Sequence record: MK962753.1 | Origin: Shigella phage JK32 | DNA length: 64,000 nucleotides | Direction: 5' to 3' (one strand) | Part shown: positions 15,238 through 29,190 of the stretch, piece by piece | Layout of the letters: each line of letters opens with the position of its first letter | How positions within the stretch are numbered: position 1 is the stretch's first letter | Notes under the pieces: model-generated | Database searches by the model: none | Told to the model about the DNA's origin: nothing | Seen by the model: only the letters and a program-made list of their open reading frames with translations | Made by a program: the position numbers and the translations under genes

Positions 15238-15557
15238 ATATTAAACTGCATTACACAATGAATAAAGCTAAGTTTCCAATGCAAAAGCATTACTATGGTC
15301 TACGTGCACAAGATCCTAAACTCTATGGTACTCATTGGTTTTGTAAACATGATAACCAATGGCACACATACGAAGAAATGCACGAGATGATGAAACAGGG
15401 TATTGAATTTAGTTATTCTAATTATGACCATCGTATAACTTGCATTCGAAAATTGAAGCGATGGATTCGTAAGAATCCGCAATTTAAAAACTTTGTGTTC
15501 TTTATGTCTCATGTTTATTTGGGTCATAGCGTTACCGTAACAGCAAAGGTTAAATAA
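15225..15557 (+). CDS. hypothetical protein (cassette gene 2)
   Basis: 110-aa ORF, overlaps upstream and downstream genes by a few nt. Confidence 0.4.
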   Translation: MARVNIKLHYTMNKAKFPMQKHYYGLRAQDPKLYGTHWFCKHDNQWHTYEEMHEMMKQGIEFSYSNYDHRITCIRKLKRWIRKNPQFKNFVFFMSHVYLGHSVTVTAKVK

Positions 15558-16396
15558 TGGCACGACTTTCCAAACAAGAACAAAAATTACACGACCGGGC
15601 AATGGAGCTAATCAATTCAGATCGTCCATTGACATATGAAGAAAAAGATTTTTGCTATAATAACTATCAGGGAGATGGTCTAGGTGGTTCTGGTGCATTC
15701 TTTACCCCAGAAGGGCTTGCATGGGATTTTACCATTGATGCACATTGTACCGGAAAAGTATTAGACCTGTGTGCTGGGATCGGTCGTTTATCTTTCTGTA
15801 TGTTGCATCGTTGTAAGCCAGAAAAGATCGTATGTGTCGAACTCAATCCAGAATTTGCGCGGATCGGTAAACGACTATTGCCGGAAGCAGAATGGATCAC
15901 CAGCGATGTATTCGAATTTGAATCAAACGAAAAATTTGATGTTGTAATTAGCAATCCACCTTTCGGGAAAATCAATACTACCGACACAAAGGATGTATTT
16001 GAGTACACTGGCGGCGAATTTGAATTTAAGGTTATGACATTAGGCCAGAAGTTTGCCGATGTTGGTTATTTTATTGTTCCTTCCGGTTCCGCTGGTTTTT
16101 CCTATTCCGGTAGACCTTATTATGACGGGACCATGAAGTCTAATAAATATCTAAAATGGAGCAAACAAACTGGTTTGGTGACTTATGCCGGATGTGGGAT
16201 CGATACATCAATCTATCGCGATGAATGGCATAGTACCAACGTTTTAACAGAAGTGGTTGAGGTTCGGTATTACGAGAAAGAAGCCGTAGAATCTCCTAAA
16301 TCGCGTCCTAACGAACAAATAGAAGAAAGTAAGGAGATTACCTTACCAAAACAGGAAAGCGAGTCTGGGACGCTCTCAGATTTGTTTGACATTTAA
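15557..16396 (+). CDS. class I SAM-dependent amino-methyltransferase, probably N6-adenine DNA methyltransferase-like
   Basis: 279 aa; FFTP motif, SAM-binding VLDLCAGIGRL, and catalytic NPPF motif. Confidence 0.55.
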   Translation: MARLSKQEQKLHDRAMELINSDRPLTYEEKDFCYNNYQGDGLGGSGAFFTPEGLAWDFTIDAHCTGKVLDLCAGIGRLSFCMLHRCKPEKIVCVELNPEFARIGKRLLPEAEWITSDVFEFESNEKFDVVISNPPFGKINTTDTKDVFEYTGGEFEFKVMTLGQKFADVGYFIVPSGSAGFSYSGRPYYDGTMKSNKYLKWSKQTGLVTYAGCGIDTSIYRDEWHSTNVLTEVVEVRYYEKEAVESPKSRPNEQIEESKEITLPKQESESGTLSDLFDI

Positions 16397-16400
16397 TTAT

Positions 16401-16430
16401 AAGCCGTCCTTGTGGGCGGCTTTTTTGTAT
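16401..16430 (+). terminator. rho-independent terminator after methyltransferase gene
   Basis: AAGCCGTCCTTGTGGGCGGCTT hairpin followed by TTTTTTGT. Confidence 0.6.
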
Positions 16431-16436
16431 GTATTT

Positions 16437-16444
16437 TATAAATA
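16437..16444 (+). promoter_or_regulatory. T4-type late promoter TATAAATA
   Basis: Exact octamer about 28 nt upstream of gene 9. Confidence 0.55.
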
Positions 16445-16471
16445 ATACATCATAACATGAGGAATTAAACA

Positions 16472-17326
16472 ATGGCACAAGTTCCAAAGAAAAGAATAGA
16501 CACGGGTACTGTCGGCAATCCATCGACTGGCGATATCTTATATGATGGCGGTAATAAAATTAACGATAACTTTGATTCAATATATGACGCATTTGCTGAT
16601 CAGCGGTTTAAAGACGTAGACCACGGTGTAGGAAGAATGGTTATTCATGCAACCGGATACTATCAGAAGCATCCACGTCAAAGCTACGCTGGTTCCGCTG
16701 TTGAGATTGGGAGTCTACACGATATCGATACAACTCAAGGCGCACTTATTGCTATTCTACCTAAAGCAAAGGTTGGCGAGGGTGTTGTATTCATAAATAG
16801 TAACGGTAGCCTTTCAACGACGACACCGCTCAATATTCGAACTCAAGCAGGTGATTCTATTAGCGGGTATTCCGGTGATGCTACAATAACACAACCATTT
16901 TCAAAAGTCACTGTTTGGTGTACTGCCGTTGAAGGTAGTCGCGTAACATGGCGATTGGGTATCGAAAGTATGTTTACCGATACAACAACGCCATTAGATA
17001 AAACAGTTAACGTAACTGGAGTAGCAACAAACGTTGCTATTGCCGCAAAAACAGAATACGTTTCCATCAAATTATTAACTACCGCTAGCAATACATCCGG
17101 TTCAAAAATGCGTTCAAGTGAAACGCTACTGATGATTGATTCTAAAGCCGGAAAAGTTTATGCGACGGAATATGCAGTTTTGCAGAAGACAGAAGATGAA
17201 CTATACACGGTTCGTTATTTCATCGGTTCCGGCGATAAAGTATATGCAGAGTATAAGGCTACTGGCGAAAATATTCGTTTGGCAGTTAAAGCCGTAGACA
17301 CTATTAAAATCGGGGTTGCTACATGA
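16472..17326 (+). CDS. 9: baseplate wedge / long tail fiber socket protein
   Basis: 284 aa; N-terminus TGTVGNPSTGDILYDGGNKINDNFDSIYDAF closely resembles T4 gp9. Confidence 0.8.
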   Translation: MAQVPKKRIDTGTVGNPSTGDILYDGGNKINDNFDSIYDAFADQRFKDVDHGVGRMVIHATGYYQKHPRQSYAGSAVEIGSLHDIDTTQGALIAILPKAKVGEGVVFINSNGSLSTTTPLNIRTQAGDSISGYSGDATITQPFSKVTVWCTAVEGSRVTWRLGIESMFTDTTTPLDKTVNVTGVATNVAIAAKTEYVSIKLLTTASNTSGSKMRSSETLLMIDSKAGKVYATEYAVLQKTEDELYTVRYFIGSGDKVYAEYKATGENIRLAVKAVDTIKIGVAT

Positions 17327-19125
17327 AACAATTAATTAATATCGGTAACGTTGTTGATGACGGTACAGGTGATTATCTAAGAAAAGGTGGTCAAAAGATT
17401 AATGACAACTTTTCTGAACTTTACACTAAGCTGGGGGATGGTGATATCCCTCATGCATCCGGCGCGTGGAAAACTCACACACAACCAGTATTAAAACCAA
17501 ATTTTGGTGATGCATGGGCGATTAATACAACGAACAACGCTGTTTCTGTTGAATTGCCTAAAGGAAGCGCGAGTGATTACAATAAAACAATTAAACTTCG
17601 TGATGTTTGGCGCTCATGGGCTGCACATAACGTAACATTGAAGCCAGCACAAGGTGATACCATTAAGGGATCTCCAATCGACCGTGAGTTGTATAAAGAT
17701 TTCATGGATGTTGAATTGGTTTATTGTGCGCCTGGACGTTGGGAATATGTCGAAAATAAACGAGTAGATACTATCACCACTTCCGATTTAAGCACAGTCG
17801 CTAAGGAAGTTTATATTGCAACCGAAGGACAAACAGACTTCCCCAATGTGTTTGGTTCCAATACTTACAATATTCGAAATGTTGAAGTGTATTATCGCGG
17901 TAACTTGCTTTATTATGGCAAGGATTTAACCGATGATTCTAACTATGGTTCAATCGGTGAAAACGGTGATATTGTTCCGCTGGACGGTAAAAGCATTAAA
18001 TTACGCTTCCCTTGTTCGGCTGGTGATACCATTCAAATCATCACTTATATGGACGGTATCGCATCCTTCCGGTCAAGCTATATTACTCATACAATCCGCG
18101 TTTATGAAACAGGAATGACCACTTTGGAATCCATCCCCGGTGAAGTTTGGGTTGGTGAACTAGCTAATAAGAAAGAATTTACTAATGCTGAATTAGGCGT
18201 AAGTAAGCGAGATCTTATTAATCCAAATTCATTTGAATTGCTGATCAACGGCACACAAATGATTAAAGCGGGTGATGCGGATTTACCTTCCTTTATTTGT
18301 GAAGGTGCTGACGGCGAAACAGAAGAAACTTGTGTACTTGCTGGCGGTCAATGGGTGGAATCTGGGGAAGATTATTCATTGATGTTCGACGAAAACAGCG
18401 TGGTGACTGGTATTAAATTATCTAAAGCACTAGATAACCGAGATACTATCACAATTCGCTGGTTTAATAATGATATCGGAACATTAATGGAATGGGACGG
18501 TGTAGGCGGTATTAAAGAAAAAGCAGATAAAATCTATCTTAATAACGAAGATGAAGTTACTCTGACAAATCGAATTGAATATACCGATTTCCAGAATCCA
18601 AGCCAAGCGACTAAACGCCCAATGGAAGATTATACAGGTCGTGTGATGGATATCTATTCCATATTCGATATTTTCTATCCTATAGGCACAATTTATGAAA
18701 ATGCGCATAACCCAGCTAACCCAGCGACCTATATGGGAGTTGGTACATGGGTACGTTATGCAGAAAAAGAATTTTTAGTTGGTTGGTCTTCTGACGCAAG
18801 CGATCAAAACTTCGCACTAAACAACAACGATCTTGATACACATGGTCAACCTACACACACCGCAGGTGGTAACGGTGGTGATGTTGCATACCAGATCAAG
18901 AAAAATATGATTCCTGAATTACAGAGCGACGATCGAGTTCTTGTAAAAGATGATAACGGAAATATTATTATTGGTGGTTGTCAGGTAGACCCTGATGCAG
19001 TAGGTCCAGCGTTTACCAAATATCGCGAAGATAATGTTAAAGTTAATCAGGGAAATACCGATCCATCAATGATTGGTATTCTTCCTCCATACAGAACTGT
19101 CTATCGTTGGCTAAGGGTAGGTTAA
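17323..19125 (+). CDS. 10: baseplate wedge / tail pin protein
   Basis: 600 aa (T4 gp10 about 602 aa); N-terminus resembles the gp9 N-terminus as in T4. Confidence 0.75.
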   Translation: MKQLINIGNVVDDGTGDYLRKGGQKINDNFSELYTKLGDGDIPHASGAWKTHTQPVLKPNFGDAWAINTTNNAVSVELPKGSASDYNKTIKLRDVWRSWAAHNVTLKPAQGDTIKGSPIDRELYKDFMDVELVYCAPGRWEYVENKRVDTITTSDLSTVAKEVYIATEGQTDFPNVFGSNTYNIRNVEVYYRGNLLYYGKDLTDDSNYGSIGENGDIVPLDGKSIKLRFPCSAGDTIQIITYMDGIASFRSSYITHTIRVYETGMTTLESIPGEVWVGELANKKEFTNAELGVSKRDLINPNSFELLINGTQMIKAGDADLPSFICEGADGETEETCVLAGGQWVESGEDYSLMFDENSVVTGIKLSKALDNRDTITIRWFNNDIGTLMEWDGVGGIKEKADKIYLNNEDEVTLTNRIEYTDFQNPSQATKRPMEDYTGRVMDIYSIFDIFYPIGTIYENAHNPANPATYMGVGTWVRYAEKEFLVGWSSDASDQNFALNNNDLDTHGQPTHTAGGNGGDVAYQIKKNMIPELQSDDRVLVKDDNGNIIIGGCQVDPDAVGPAFTKYREDNVKVNQGNTDPSMIGILPPYRTVYRWLRVG

Positions 19126-19126
19126 T

Positions 19127-19771
19127 ATGATTTCGAAAACACGTTCAAAAGCTAGTGTATTTTCCAGCGATGCGGCGTTTATTTCATACGATCCAGGATC
19201 GAAAGATCCTGTTATCGGTGGTTCTCGTCCTATTGGTGGTGTTAATGTCGATCAATCAAGAAAAGGTTCCTATGTAAACAACGTTCAATCTGCAATTGAT
19301 GACCTTTATTCATTGTCAATGATCCGAATTGGTGACGTTTTAGTAACAACAAATTCAACTGCACCACAATCGGCAGGGCAAATTGAAACATTAACATTTG
19401 CAGGAAGTGTTAATAATCAACATAACCCAGAAGCAAAGAAAGTATTAATTGATGTTTTGGGTTATCCATTTATTGTTGATGTTGGGTCTTCCGGCGTTTC
19501 TTTATGTGAGAAAGTAACGGAAAAATTTACCGAACTAATGAATAAAAACATTATGTTCAAAGAAGTAAAAAGAAAAGGAAGTAGCAACGATCAATTAGAA
19601 ATTCATTATATCGATTCTCTTGAACATCCACCAACCGATATTAACAAGTACGGAATTACAATCACAGGAAATGTTGATTCCCCTGCTCGTGTTGGTTATG
19701 GTTCATGGTCTCGCATGGGTACAGAAGAGAAATTTGGAACTACCCTATATTATTTCAAACGTATTGCATAA
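19127..19771 (+). CDS. 11: baseplate wedge / short tail fiber attachment protein
   Basis: 214 aa; synteny. Confidence 0.65.
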   Translation: MISKTRSKASVFSSDAAFISYDPGSKDPVIGGSRPIGGVNVDQSRKGSYVNNVQSAIDDLYSLSMIRIGDVLVTTNSTAPQSAGQIETLTFAGSVNNQHNPEAKKVLIDVLGYPFIVDVGSSGVSLCEKVTEKFTELMNKNIMFKEVKRKGSSNDQLEIHYIDSLEHPPTDINKYGITITGNVDSPARVGYGSWSRMGTEEKFGTTLYYFKRIA

Positions 19772-19782
19772 GGTGATGTATA

Positions 19783-21183
19783 ATGGCAAACAATACTATT
19801 AACCATGTAAAAGACGATGCTCAATACGTCAAGTTTAACCCTGTAAATGATTGGCCTCAAAGCATTACCAACGTACAAGCGGCTTTAGCCGCTATTAACG
19901 GCTTTGCCGTAAATGGATTACCGGACGCTACGGAAGATACAGCCGGGATCGCTGCAATCGCAACTCAGGAAGAAGTAAACGACGGTACAGTAGACAATAA
20001 GATCGTGACTCCAAAAACACTGGCGGTTAAAAAGTCACGTCCAGATGCCACAAAAGAAGTAAAGGGTATCACCCGATTTGCCACGATGGAAGAATCGCTG
20101 CAAGAGAGCAACGAGAACATGGCAATTGGTCCAGACACACTAAACCATTACTTCACCACTAAAAAGGCGTCAGAGAGCGTTCAGGGGACTATTAAGATAT
20201 GTTCTCTTGAGGCAGCAAAGATTGGCAGTGATGACACAATGGCAGTAACACCGAAAAAGATGCACACTGCCATTGCACAGATTGTACCCGGATTAATTCC
20301 AGATCAAAACACAGCAACCGAAAGCGCACAGGGTTTAGTTCAGTTAGCAACCAATGCGCAAGTTTTACAAGGCCAGATTCGAGAAGGTTTTGCAATTAGC
20401 CCTTATGCATTTGCAAATGCTCGCGCCAATGAGAATCAGGCGGGTACTGTTAAGATCGCCAGCCAGTCACAGATGAATGCTGGTTCAGATGATACTGTAG
20501 TTGTTTCTGCTAAGAAGTTTGCAAGCACTAAGGCAACAACGTCTCAATACGGTATTGTTAAACTACGAGACACCGTAGGAAGTGAGGCTAACGCTGCACT
20601 ATCAGCAAATGCTAAGGTTCTTCCTAGCACTGGCGGTACGGTAAGCGGAAACGTCTATAAAGGTTCTAACTCAGACGGCAACCAGTTTGTTACTAAAAAT
20701 GAATTAGCGAGTCACGCAATGCCAATTGGTGGTATTATCCTTTCTGGATTCAATGCTGATCGCGGTGACTTTCTGATCTGTAATGGTCGTTCACTGAATA
20801 AAAATCAATATCCGCAATTATTTTCTGCGATTGGTTATACCTTTGGTGGTTCAGGTAACAATTTTAACCTTCCTGATATGCGCGGTTTAGTTGCTCGTGG
20901 TTGCGATCATGGAAGAAACTTTGATCCATGCCGTCGATTTGGTTCTTATCAAGAAGACGCAATGCAGAGAATTACTGGTAAATTCCCTGTAGCTGACCGC
21001 TGGCGCGGTTGGTATGGTGGCGCATTTACTGCACAGCGCGGTCAATGGAGCACGAACTATAAAAACGGTGGGGGTGATGATTGGGGTTCTACTGTTAACT
21101 TTGACTCAGGAAGATCCGTAAGAACGGCTAACGAGACTCGCGTCAAGAGTCTGGCATTAAACTACATCATAAGGGTGCGCTAA
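19783..21183 (+). CDS. 12: short tail fiber protein
   Basis: 466 aa; repetitive Ala/Thr/Val-rich N-terminal half; synteny. Confidence 0.7.
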   Translation: MANNTINHVKDDAQYVKFNPVNDWPQSITNVQAALAAINGFAVNGLPDATEDTAGIAAIATQEEVNDGTVDNKIVTPKTLAVKKSRPDATKEVKGITRFATMEESLQESNENMAIGPDTLNHYFTTKKASESVQGTIKICSLEAAKIGSDDTMAVTPKKMHTAIAQIVPGLIPDQNTATESAQGLVQLATNAQVLQGQIREGFAISPYAFANARANENQAGTVKIASQSQMNAGSDDTVVVSAKKFASTKATTSQYGIVKLRDTVGSEANAALSANAKVLPSTGGTVSGNVYKGSNSDGNQFVTKNELASHAMPIGGIILSGFNADRGDFLICNGRSLNKNQYPQLFSAIGYTFGGSGNNFNLPDMRGLVARGCDHGRNFDPCRRFGSYQEDAMQRITGKFPVADRWRGWYGGAFTAQRGQWSTNYKNGGGDDWGSTVNFDSGRSVRTANETRVKSLALNYIIRVR

Positions 21184-22952
21184 TGATTGAACAATTAAAC
21201 ATTCGTAACATTCCTAACGTTGATGGTGTACCGGGCGAAGGCCAACACTCAATCATGTGGATGAAAAATGGTGAATGTTTAAGCGCAGCAACTACCCAGA
21301 CTGGTCATGACGGTACGCTTAACCGCGTACCTTATGCTATTCAGGAAAACGTTGTTCGCTTAGACGAAAACGCTAAAACAACTAAGACAAAAATTAATGA
21401 GATCGTAACTGCCGTTAATGACATTAAAACGACTTTAGGTGCAATCGGTGACGGTAGCGTTATTGATATTGTAAACCAAACAATCGAACATGTCAATGCA
21501 GTCGAGGAAAACTTAGGAGAAACCGCAAGAACTCTCCAGACTGCCGTAACTGGTCTGGAAGGTGTTCAAATCAAGATCGGTGTTCGTCCAGCAGCAGATC
21601 CGAGCACACGAACGATCTATGATGATATTTCCTTCATTAAACAGGAGATGGGTGCATATCCGGGATTTAACATCAACGGACAGCCGGAAGCAGATAACTC
21701 CGGTTCTGGTATGAAATATCGTTTAATGCAGAATACAGCAGCATTAAACAACCACGGTCAACGAATCTCCCAATTAGAAAGCGATTGGCAAGATTCTGAT
21801 GTGGGCGATCTGACCGAGAAGGTAAACAAATTTCGTAGCGAACTAGGCGACACTTCCCTAGCCACACAGGATAATGTTTATCTTCGCTTGCGTACCAATA
21901 CCCGCAATATTGCTAACTTATCAAATGAAGTCTTAGAAGTCAAGAAAGCAATTTTATTCGATGCGGTTCCTGATATCGGGACGAAAGTAACAAACCTTAC
22001 TGCAAACTTTGACCGTTTAGACAGTGAAGTCAACGGCGTAGATTCTGGTATTCGTCCGCGACTGACGGCAATCGAAAATAAAATTGGCAATCCTCAAGCC
22101 GCAGGAAGTCTTGATTATCGTTTAACTAATCAGGAACGAGAATTTAATGACCTGAAAGTTACAGTTGGTGTTAGTGGCGCAGATGGCCTACGCGGTGAAG
22201 TTGCACGGTTGACTAACCAGATCGGGACCGACGTTGATCGTCATACTATCGCCGGACGAATCAAGATTATCGAAAACACACAAGGCCGTTTAGAAGCAAG
22301 TGTCCAGGACATTGAGCAAATGGTAGGCAATGCGCAATCCGGTATTGTCGCTGGTGTGATGAAACTGTCAACTGATATGTATGGTGATCCACAAGGCGCT
22401 GATCAGTTTACTCAAGATGGTATTGTGAAAACTGTCAAGGCGATCCAAAAATCTGATGCTGGTAAAGTCTCCGATGTTCCTGATGATGGGTATCATTATC
22501 TGCGTAAACACGGTGAATGGGTACAAGTGGCATATGCGGCGGGGGCATTCAAAAACACTACCGATATTACACTAGAACTTGATGCACAAGACACATACAA
22601 GGGTATTCCTTTGACGGACATGACCGCAGAAGTTCCGGTACGTCAGATGGTTAAAAGCGATTCGCTGGTTACTGTACAGGATAAAGGTTTATTCCGTTGT
22701 GTATTCCGCACATCGATTCACGCACAGCATAATGCTACCTTCGTGGTCGGTATTTTCAAAAACGGGCAAATTGTGCACGAGGTAAGAAATGGTCATTATG
22801 GAACTGATGAATTAATTAGCTATTCTACCAGTGCTTTCCTAAATATTGAAAAGGGCGACCGGATCGATATTCGTATTAAGGGTGTATCCGAAGAAGCATT
22901 AGCGCAACCGCTACAAATTAAAGAGTTCCTCTTTGGAATTTCTCCGGTATAA
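21183..22952 (+). CDS. wac: fibritin (whisker) with foldon-like motif and extra C-terminal domain
   Basis: 589 aa; long coiled-coil region; foldon-like GYHYLRKHGEWVQV followed by about 130 further residues. Confidence 0.65.
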   Translation: MIEQLNIRNIPNVDGVPGEGQHSIMWMKNGECLSAATTQTGHDGTLNRVPYAIQENVVRLDENAKTTKTKINEIVTAVNDIKTTLGAIGDGSVIDIVNQTIEHVNAVEENLGETARTLQTAVTGLEGVQIKIGVRPAADPSTRTIYDDISFIKQEMGAYPGFNINGQPEADNSGSGMKYRLMQNTAALNNHGQRISQLESDWQDSDVGDLTEKVNKFRSELGDTSLATQDNVYLRLRTNTRNIANLSNEVLEVKKAILFDAVPDIGTKVTNLTANFDRLDSEVNGVDSGIRPRLTAIENKIGNPQAAGSLDYRLTNQEREFNDLKVTVGVSGADGLRGEVARLTNQIGTDVDRHTIAGRIKIIENTQGRLEASVQDIEQMVGNAQSGIVAGVMKLSTDMYGDPQGADQFTQDGIVKTVKAIQKSDAGKVSDVPDDGYHYLRKHGEWVQVAYAAGAFKNTTDITLELDAQDTYKGIPLTDMTAEVPVRQMVKSDSLVTVQDKGLFRCVFRTSIHAQHNATFVVGIFKNGQIVHEVRNGHYGTDELISYSTSAFLNIEKGDRIDIRIKGVSEEALAQPLQIKEFLFGISPV

Positions 22953-22958
22953 GAAATT

Positions 22959-22980
22959 AAAGGGGCGTTAAGCCCCTTTT
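22959..22980 (+). terminator. rho-independent terminator after wac
   Basis: AAAGGGGC-GTTAA-GCCCCTTTT hairpin with T-run. Confidence 0.6.
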
Positions 22981-22998
22981 CCGTTTATAGGTGATATT

Positions 22999-23931
22999 AT
23001 GTCAGGATATGTAACCAATAACCCAAGAGAATTAAAAGACGCTATTCTGCGTCGTTTAGGCGCACCAGTAATTAACGTAGAAGTCACAGAAGACCAGATT
23101 TACGATTGTATTCAGAGAGCACTAGAACTCTATGGGGAATATCATTTCGATGGTGTGAATAAAGGATATAAAGTATTTCGTGTTAGTGCAGAGCAAGCGC
23201 AACACGGGGTATTTGATTTAAGCGACTCTGGGGTATTCGCAGTAACTAAAATTATTCGAACAAACGTAGGTAGCGCGGCTACGATGGATGGTACTGCCGT
23301 TTATCCGTGGTTTACTGACTTTCTGTTGGGTTTAGCGGGTGTAAATGGCGGTTTAGGATCTGGCTGTAGTAAATTTTATGGTCCAAATGCAATGGGCGGT
23401 GATCTGGGATATTTCGAACAGCTTATGAGCTATCGCGCAACTATGCAAAACATGCTTAATCCTCTTCCCGATTACTGGTATAACAGCGCAAACGGACAAC
23501 TTAAGATCACTGGTAATTTTCGAGAAGGTGATCTCATTGTAGTTGAATTGTATGTTAAAAGCTATGTAGACGTTCCTGATATGATAGGAGCGGTCGCTGG
23601 CTATGCTCATGCTGGAGGATGCTCTACCGCTGGCGGAATTAGTGCTGTTTATGATAACCCAACCGCAGGATTGAGCGGGATTTCGGCAGGAATGGGACCA
23701 ATTAGAGAAAACAAACAGGGTGCATATAATAACCGTTGGGTGAAAGATATGGCTACCGCCTTCACTAAGGAGGTTTGGGGGTCAATCATGGCTAAACATC
23801 AAGGTCTGCAATTACCCGGCGGTGTCACTGTTGATGGTATACGAATCATTGAAGAAGCACGCGCCGACATTGAGAAATTGCGACAAGAATTAGAATTATT
23901 AGATCCTCCGTTCGGCATCCTCATGATTTGA
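22999..23931 (+). CDS. 13: neck protein
   Basis: 310 aa (T4 gp13 about 309 aa); synteny. Confidence 0.7.
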
Positions 23932-23967
23932 TTTATTGGGGGAGTATTCCCCCATTTGGAGTAACAT

Positions 23968-24708
23968 ATGTTTAACAACACTCTTTTTGCTCGCCTTGAA
24001 TCGCAAAAGGATTATGAGAATACACGACAAACAGAGATTCTTAATCCTTATGTGAACTTTCACAAATATACAAATACTCAGACGTTAGCCGACGTTATGG
24101 TCGCCGAAGCTATTCAGATGCGAGGTGTAGAATTATATTACATCCCTCGTGAATTTGTCAAACCAGATATGATATTTGGCGAGGATGTTCAAAGCAAATT
24201 TACTAAAGCATGGAAATTTGCGGCTTATATTAACTCATTTGATGGGTATGAAGGAGCGGGTAACTTCTTCTCTAGTTTCGGTTATCAAGCCAATGATGAA
24301 CTAACTTTTACGGTTAACCCCAACCTATTCAAGCATCAAGTAGATGATCAAGAGCCAAAATCAGGTGACTTGATTTATATTCCAATGAGTAATGATCTCT
24401 TTGAAATCAATTACGTCGAGCCATATCAGCCGTTTTTTCAGGCTGGCAAAAATGCCATGCGTAAAATTATTGCAGAGAAATTCGTGTATAGCGGTGAGGA
24501 ATTGCGACCAGAATTACAACGCAATGAGGGAATTAATGTTGATGAGTTTGCGGATCTGGATCTTGCACCGATCACTAATCTGGATGGGTTAACGGATATC
24601 AACTTAGATCAGTACAAAGAAGATAAGCAATTCAGAAGCGAAGGACAAGATTTTATTGACCCATTTGATCCTATTAATGGCAAGGGTTCACCTTTCGCCG
24701 ATTTTTGA
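23968..24708 (+). CDS. 14: neck protein
   Basis: 246 aa; synteny. Confidence 0.65.
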
Positions 24709-25568
24709 TAAATACTCATAAACAAGGGGGTCAAATGTTCGGTTGGCACTATAATTCGTCAATTAGACGGTATATTGTATTGCTGGGTAATTTATTCTCC
24801 GGCGTACAAATTAAAAGGGTGCGCAGTGACGGTGAGCGTTTTATTAAAGTTCCTATCACCTACGCAAAGAAAGAAAAATTCATGATGAGTCTGGACAAAT
24901 ATAACAATATCTCAAGTGAGGAAGACGTAGCAAAGGTAGAAACTATTTTACCTCGTATGTGTCTTTCTTTGATTGATATGACATACGCCCAGAACTTTAA
25001 AACCAATATTGCAAATAAGACAGTACCAAAATATACAGCGGATGGAATCAGGAGCGTAACACAATATAATCCTGTACCATATAAGTTTACTTTCGAGTTG
25101 GGGATTTATACGCGTAACGAAGATGATATGTTTCAGATAATTGAACAGATTCTTCCTTACTTCCAGCCTCATTTTAACTGTAAGATTAAAGAACTACACG
25201 GTAATGATGTATGGATTGATCGAGATATTCAGGTCACAATTAGTTCTATTACTCCAGATGAACAGGTAGGCGAAGATAAGTTTTCTCGTCGTCGTCTTGA
25301 GTGGACCATTATGTTTGAGTTCATCGGGTTTATCTATCCTCCAGCTACCGACGTTAAGGGGGAAATCAGAACGATTTATCTTGATTTTCATGCTAATTCT
25401 CGTGAATTAAATCCTAGCGGTAATTTTGAATCTGTGGATCACGAGGTCGTTAAACGTGATGTTGAGCAAGAAGATTGGGACGGAACTATCAAAGAATCAT
25501 ATTCTAGTGATATTCCAATACCAGTTGCACCAACTCCACCGGGTCCACGTATTGTAAGAGAATTTTAA
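24705..25568 (+). CDS. 15: tail sheath stabilizer / tail terminator protein
   Basis: 287 aa; synteny. Confidence 0.65.
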
Positions 25569-25581
25569 GAGGTAAATTATT

Positions 25582-29190
<3,609 letters not shown>

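Follow-up and report, generated by a model that had tools for sequence, protein, structure and literature searches.

The neck whiskers of Shigella phage JK32 probably end in the manner of an RB49-type fibritin, in which a shaft and a foldon are followed by a jelly-roll head that trimerises the whisker tip. The DNA examined (the window) is a stretch of 64,000 nucleotides from sequence record MK962753.1, and the protein concerned is the product of its fibritin gene, wac. An extended C-terminus is in itself a known feature of RB49-type fibritins; Letarov et al. are said to have described it in 2005. The new points are that the foldon is retained, that the extra domain has a predicted C1q/TNF fold, that the RB49 and 44RR types of C-terminus are homologous, and that wac as a whole seems to have been replaced in JK32. 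Neither the findings on the head nor those on the allele overturn current views. Text searches of the literature (fibritin with C1q/TNF-like, Krischvirus fibritin, JK32) found none assigning the head to the C1q/TNF fold.

Few trimerisation tags are used as widely as the foldon, so that its behaviour in natural relatives is of some practical interest. Many of these relatives would have it as an internal neck with a C1q-like head above, and the RB49 foldon reportedly does not suffice by itself. The fold assignment gives the whisker tip of RB49-like phages, common candidates for phage therapy against E. coli and Shigella, a form that can be tested: a trimeric knob, of a kind that usually binds something. 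The allele replacement in JK32 further indicates that near-identical genomes exchange the whisker gene.

The fibritin gene and its product

The wac ORF comprises 589 codons and a stop (Table 1). Its product matches PHROG 1056 ('fibritin neck whisker') over aa 1-582 (E 1e-177) and the T4 fibritin structures 3j2o/2bsg (HMMER, E 7e-52), and is 100% identical to the NCBI entry 'fibritin neck whiskers protein [Shigella phage JK32]'. The C-terminal part reads VSDVPDDGYHYLRKHGEWVQVAYAAGAFKNTTDITLELDAQ...EFLFGISPV, in agreement with the letters quoted in a first-pass annotation of this DNA. The gene is flanked by gp12 (19783-21183) and gp13 (22999-23931). By PHROG assignments, the gene order gp9-10-11-12-wac-13-14-15-16-17 is that of T4; the order gp12-wac-gp13 is common to JK32, RB49, KFS-EC and 44RR. 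Unlike in Aeh1, there is no chaperone gene downstream of wac, which is directly followed by gene 13. Between the two lies a G+C-rich hairpin, flagged by the terminator scan on the minus strand only; neither the promoter nor the terminator scan around wac gave more than chance, and this includes the number of terminator-like sites in the region.

Table 1. Features of the wac region of JK32, with positions in the window.
Feature	Position	Strand	Evidence
wac (fibritin, neck whisker)	21183..22952	+	PHROG 1056, T4 3j2o/2bsg, JK32 identity, synteny
N-terminal neck/collar attachment domain (putative), aa 1-50	21183..21332	+	aa 7-83 vs T4 constructs 2ibl/1ox3, E 1e-15
Segmented coiled-coil shaft, aa 51-426	21333..22460	+	Collinear with T4 shaft, aa 7-428 to T4 5-432
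Foldon, aa 427-453, GKVSDVPDDGYHYLRKHGEWVQVAYAA	22461..22541	+	Pfam Fibritin_C, HMMER to T4, AF2 hairpin
Predicted C1q/TNF/BclA-type jelly-roll head, aa 454-589	22542..22949	+	AF2, Pfam BclA_C/C1q
G+C-rich hairpin AAAGGGGC-GTTAA-GCCCCTTT between wac and gene 13	22959..22979		Visible in sequence
Putative recombination tract, divergent wac allele in RB49-like backbone	21203..22937		Gapless comparison with RB49

As in other T4-like fibritins, an N-terminal domain is followed by a long segmented coiled coil, and a single alignment to T4 covers both (E 7e-52). The N-terminal domain, for which a role in attachment to the neck or collar is described (Letarov & Krisch 2013, PMC3797505), has kept more of its sequence in distant homologues than any other part (46-54% identity, compared with 17-38% elsewhere). 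Among Krischvirus-type alleles, the shaft is the least conserved part, with a mean pairwise identity of 0.67. In a precomputed Pfam table, family PF28231.1 is assigned to the JK32 fibritin (P0003) and to three relatives; this family might already model the C-terminal head or the N-terminal domain.

Fibritins have been divided into eight C-terminal types, of which RB49 is one; others are JS98 with a double foldon, RB43 with Ig-like domains, Aeh1 with its downstream chaperone, and 44RR (Letarov & Krisch 2013, PMC3797505). Golomidova et al. have also treated the extended RB49-type fibritin. As in the JS98, RB43, Aeh1 and 44RR types, N-terminus and shaft are conserved in JK32 and the C-terminal module is variable; in the RB43 type (P0022), Ig-like domains take the place of the C1q-like head. 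The closest likeness is to RB49 (Krischvirus) itself: both fibritins have 589 residues, are collinear without gaps at 76% amino acid identity, and occupy the same gene neighbourhood. JK32 nevertheless carries a distinct allele, whose head is 80% identical to that of RB49 at the amino acid level.

The foldon and the domain beyond it

JK32 fibritin has the same kinds of domain as T4 fibritin (1aa0, 1rfo, 2bsg), namely homologous N-terminal domain, segmented coiled coil and foldon, but whereas the T4 protein ends three residues past the foldon, that of JK32 has a further 136 residues after the counterpart of T4 L27 (aa 454-589, window 22542-22949). The first-pass annotation had recognised a foldon-like motif with a further segment behind it, and its estimate of about 130 residues was close. 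Its register for the foldon has to be corrected, however: the 'GY' of GYHYLRK corresponds to T4 G10-Q11 and not to G1-Y2, so that the foldon starts nine residues upstream, at G427 (window 22461), and is complete (aa 427-453).

The Pfam family Fibritin_C matches aa 368-451 over profile positions 2-92 of 93 (E 1.1e-25; 90 bits, with a cut-off of 21). The last 170 residues alone still score above that cut-off, with 29 bits (E 1e-6) over profile positions 64-92. HMMER pairs AGKVSDVPDDGYHYLRKHGEWVQV with the T4 foldon segment; P7, D9, G10, Y13, R15, K16, G18, E19, W20 and V21 are identical to T4, and the same alignment gives the replacements Y2K, P4S, L22Q, F26A and L27A. Some of these replaced positions presumably pack in the hydrophobic core of the foldon. 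AlphaFold2 (AF2) predicts a β-hairpin here, with strands at aa 438-442 and 445-449 (block-mean pLDDT 86-88). This hairpin is the most conserved stretch among wac alleles (0.91), and the motif recurs in distant fibritins. Since both the HMMER alignment and the Fibritin_C match run through the motif, the JK32 foldon is, on alignment evidence, homologous to that of T4 over its full length, and has been kept rather than replaced.

This does not make it equivalent to the T4 foldon, which trimerises by itself. In RB49 fibritin, the foldon motif alone is reportedly not enough for folding and trimerisation, and the extended C-terminus is needed; folding from the foldon alone is confined to the T4 and JS98 fibritins (Letarov & Krisch 2013, PMC3797505). 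Full conservation of the hairpin suggests that the foldon still contributes beside the head.

Foldon-like hairpins are also found outside fibritins. Many long genomic and metagenomic proteins, for example P0024, P0028, P0029 and P0032, contain 5-14 tandem copies; their Fibritin_C scores are high for the protein as a whole, with no one stretch that is strong. One of these proteins carries a T4 gp9/10 N-terminal domain, and another a phage tail-tip domain. Because of these tandem copies, the foldon hairpin seems to serve as a repeat unit in other fibre proteins as well.

The segment beyond the foldon is predicted to be a folded domain. Structure prediction and profile both used an alignment, A2, of the last 170 residues with 12 homologues. 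The AF2 model of these 170 residues (mean pLDDT 89, pTM 0.82) has a short helix, the foldon hairpin, a linker of 3-4 residues and then 10-11 strands, in keeping with the beta-rich character noted in the first pass. It thus shows the predicted domain order of shaft, foldon and jelly roll, and the predicted domain has the ten-strand jelly roll of the C1q/TNF-like superfamily. Foldseek searches against predicted viral structures find the same fold in hundreds of phage proteins, several of them named as tail-fibre, collagen-repeat or C1q-domain proteins.

Sequence profiles lead to the same superfamily. The best Pfam matches to the head are BclA_C (E 0.013) and C1q (E 0.035), although the JK32 head by itself stays below the curated cut-offs (15.8 vs 38 bits for BclA_C; 14.8 vs 23.7 bits for C1q). 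BclA_C matches nine of the 13 homologues, with a best E of 2.9e-7, and C1q matches five; a weak BclA_C assignment to one homologue, P0018, is already present in the precomputed Pfam table. A search of 1.84 billion representative proteins with the A2 profile recovers proteins that Pfam itself assigns to C1q, BclA_C or TNF, among them some that pass the C1q or TNF cut-offs, such as P0079 with 58.7 bits. Model and profiles together indicate that aa 454-589 are a C1q/TNF-type jelly-roll domain. In the PDB, a sequence search with the family profile returned foldon constructs and 'Pizza' repeats, the latter judged spurious, and no solved structure of the head. A word-indexed homologue search with the head alone yielded two fragments of 110 residues only; the full-length query and the profile search found more.

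Related domains are known at the ends of other trimeric fibres. The tail-needle knob of Sf6 (3rwn), P5 of PRD1 (1yq5) and the fibre tips of cyanophages A4 and A-1(L) (9k09/8ke9) are TNF-like knobs of this kind; in the case of Sf6, the knob caps a trimeric coiled coil (PMC3741392). Those fibres are host-facing and belong to the tail or a vertex, whereas the predicted JK32 knob sits on neck whiskers, which are known for controlling the long tail fibres. Unlike in the C1q family and in Bacillus BclA/ExsFA (PF00386, PF18573), the stalk of JK32 fibritin is an α-helical coiled coil with a foldon, and not a collagen-like triple helix.

Role and ancestry of the head

The proposed arrangement is as follows. 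Beyond the coiled-coil shaft, each chain would form the foldon hairpin, the short linker and the jelly roll, and three jelly rolls would come together as a globular, trimeric head that caps the free end of every neck whisker and has the foldon beneath it as a short neck. The head would nucleate trimerisation of the fibre from the C-terminus and set its register, a job that the T4 foldon does alone and that C1q-type heads do for collagen-like stalks. The head may plausibly serve as a knob that binds a conserved partner as well, be it the long tail fibre of the phage itself or a surface ligand that is conserved. We infer the role in trimerisation and folding from the family of folds to which the head belongs, from its pattern of conservation and from the literature on RB49. 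Every close structural neighbour of the head is known as a homotrimer at the end of a trimeric stalk.

Conservation was scored among 12 alleles that are 50-100% identical. The most conserved strands of the head are A (0.92), F (0.87) and H (0.83), and the most variable parts are strand E (0.51) and the A'-B region (0.61). In TNF-type trimers, strands A, F and H belong to the inner sheet (A'AHCF) that forms the interface, and strand E lies outside; the assignment of strands to sheets, and of loops to top or base, follows this canonical topology and not the model coordinates. The pattern is consistent with a TNF-type trimer but is not proof of one. The predicted apical loops are well conserved too, namely C-D with HNAT, E-F with RNGHYGTDE (0.87), and G-H. 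HNAT and RNGHYGTDE hardly vary among alleles whose identity is otherwise 50-88%. Together with purifying selection, this conserved apex favours a conserved partner over a variable host receptor.

The long tail fibre of the phage itself is a candidate for such a partner. The head would then mainly dock this fibre, holding it when retracted and aiding its attachment during assembly, and would take over or add to the role of T4 fibritin, which serves in fibre attachment and in environment-dependent retraction. The near-invariant RNGHYGTDE loop and HNAT fit a conserved partner of this type better than a variable host receptor, and the interaction with the fibre involves the C-terminal part of fibritin (Letarov & Krisch, PMC3797505). 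We nevertheless regard docking as the main function of the head as somewhat unlikely. In a 2026 cryo-EM preprint on T4, the contact between whisker and fibre is made by helix α11 (fibritin 361-386) and a CBM-like domain belonging to the kneecap protein gp35, so the tip is not the contact in T4; because the α11 site precedes the foldon by about 100 residues, contact with the fibre need not be made by the tip. In addition, the head of JK32 differs by 20% from that of RB49 on a backbone that is 98-99% identical in the gp9-gp16 block (the fibre genes lie outside the window).

That the head is an accessory adhesin, binding a host glycan or envelope component reversibly and keeping the virion near the cell before the fibres engage, is unlikely. 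The phage structural neighbours of the head are mostly host-binding tips, and Letarov and Krisch have proposed an accessory-adhesin role for other fibritin types. Typical receptor-binding tips differ from the JK32 head, however, whose predicted apex has no hypervariability, with dN/dS of about 0.1 and no indels. Furthermore, 40 Krischvirus records from various E. coli and Shigella hosts have wac alleles 95-100% identical to that of RB49, and the isolated CBD of A-1(L) failed to bind cells. Neither docking nor adhesion excludes a folding role of the head.

By far the least probable account, in which the likeness to the foldon is due to chance and trimerisation is tied to the extreme C-terminus only, can draw on the five replaced foldon residues and on the reported inability of RB49 fibritin to fold from the motif alone, but it conflicts with the Fibritin_C match (E 1e-25) that extends across the motif as far as profile position 92 of 93, the 29 bits for the motif alone, the ten residues identical to T4, the predicted hairpin, and the status of the motif as the most conserved stretch and a recurrent one in distant fibritins. 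The first-pass annotation had named a similar outcome as one that would overturn its reading, namely a foldon-like segment not homologous to that of T4 and a trimerisation unit at the extreme C-terminus. The first half does not hold. The second does in part: because RB49 fibritin needs its extended C-terminus (Letarov & Krisch 2013), the extreme C-terminal domain of JK32 is, by analogy, probably at least part of the trimerisation unit.

The preferred reading, a head that trimerises the whisker tip, gains a wider setting from the fibritins of related phages, the comparison that the first pass had recommended. Foldon and C-terminal domain occur together in 57 of 57 Krischvirus records (heads 79-90% identical) and in other T4-like genera, so that this architecture is kept across genera. 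With the JK32 head as query, tblastn at E <= 0.01 matched only these 57 records in the phage collection. The profile finds divergent heads in 172 records of T4-like phages of Klebsiella, Raoultella and Serratia, and also in Erwinia phages Cronus and FBB1, Yersinia phage MHG19 and Aeromonas phages 44RR2.8t and 31. In most of the divergent head-bearing fibritins, a proline two or three residues from the C-terminus is conserved. About 18 metagenomic representative clusters of fibritin length (mostly 559-600 residues; one fragment of 413) have the head behind a foldon-like motif of the form D-x-P-x-D-G-x-x-Y-x-R-x-x-G-x-W. The RB49-type C-terminal part has been called 'unrelated to T4 Wac' in the literature. 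When A2 is aligned to the C-terminus of 44RR fibritin with hhalign, the probability is 96.7% (E 4.7e-10, 151 columns), and on this basis the RB49 and 44RR types are homologous.

Because foldon and head are so widely spread among T4-like phages, and because at least two of the types published as 'unrelated', RB49 and 44RR, are homologous, it can tentatively be supposed that fibritin with foldon and head is the ancestral majority form and that the foldon-only end of T4 is a secondary truncation; the swapped wac alleles would in addition imply frequency-dependent selection on whiskers from outside. As a whole this is a doubtful proposition. If true, whiskers would be under selection from the host surface, defences or antibodies, and not just for internal control of the fibres. 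A further reason for considering it is that the end of T4 fibritin, STFLSPA, resembles the end of the last strand of the head, EFLFGISPV (window 22938-22949). This likeness is compatible with loss of the T4 head by internal deletion, but is too short to exclude chance. Of the first-pass idea of an added distal whisker domain, possibly for binding or sensing, a folded distal domain is supported by the structure prediction, whereas the word 'added' may not suit a form that is widespread and may be ancestral, and a binding role is plausible.

The wac allele and its genomic setting

The gp9-gp16 block (window 15500-26100) was compared with RB49-like Krischvirus phages, to which its DNA is 93.5% identical overall. 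The genes gp9-gp12 and gp13-gp16 are mostly 96-100% identical to those of RB49, while the wac ORF is only 74.0% identical at the nucleotide level, without gaps. Its flanks are 98.0% (gp12, left) and 98.3% (22953-23300, right) identical, and the first and last of the clustered mismatches bound the tract given in Table 1. The synonymous divergence dS from RB49 is about 1.7 in wac and 0.07 in gp12. Since the flanks are 98-99% identical and wac 74.0%, and since dS differs to this extent, JK32 appears, within the compared block, to have an RB49-like backbone into which an anciently diverged wac allele was swapped as a whole gene.

Other members of the genus show a similar discontinuity. Identities of the 57 Krischvirus wac genes to RB49 are bimodal, with 40 at 95-100%, 17 at 75-76% and none between, and protein clusters distinguish about eight to ten separate alleles, all equal in length. 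The nearest wac gene to that of JK32 in the phage collection is at most 78% identical at the nucleotide level; the nearest protein relative of its fibritin is metagenomic (86% amino acid identity). All this points to a set of discrete, ancient wac alleles that would be exchanged as a cassette. In KFS-EC, the diverged block runs from gp10 to wac. In more distant relatives, the rate at which wac diverges is close to that of gp11 and gp12 and exceeds that of gp10, gp13 and gp14.

Two other explanations for the divergence of the head were considered and rejected. Its GC content (42.2%) and GC3 (37.5%) are like those of the rest of wac and of neighbouring genes, and the divergent tract spans the whole ORF, both of which speak against a recent horizontal gain of the head. 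Among JK32, RB49 and KFS-EC, dN/dS is 0.07-0.18 in the head and about 0.1 in the whole gene, with no indels, which argues against positive selection on the head; the head is free of indels even among alleles down to 53% identity.

Smaller mosaic patches relative to RB49, which suggest additional short tracts of recombination, occur at 19100-19700 in gp11 (91-95% identity) and at 23300-23900 in gp13 (87-92%); outside the patches these genes are 98-100% identical. Between genes 13 and 14, Escherichia virus KFS-EC carries a gene annotated as a homing endonuclease (L003, 7803-8618); in JK32 and RB49 this gene is absent there, and the gap measures 36 nt (JK32 window 23931-23968).

Gene 17, for the large terminase subunit (window 26076-29187), is interrupted by an insertion of 1,284 nt after codon 255/256, at about 26842-28125. 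The upstream ORF starts with the first part of gene 17 and reads on into the insertion, which encodes a TnsA-like or endonuclease I-like nuclease domain; the remainder of gp17 resumes in another frame (ORF 27808-29187). The insertion, for which no Rfam intron match was found at E <= 0.1, may be a mobile nuclease element, or else an intron not recognised as such. Five of 74 related phage records contain it, and the same nuclease-domain signature is seen in gene 17 of L004, a metagenomic relative.
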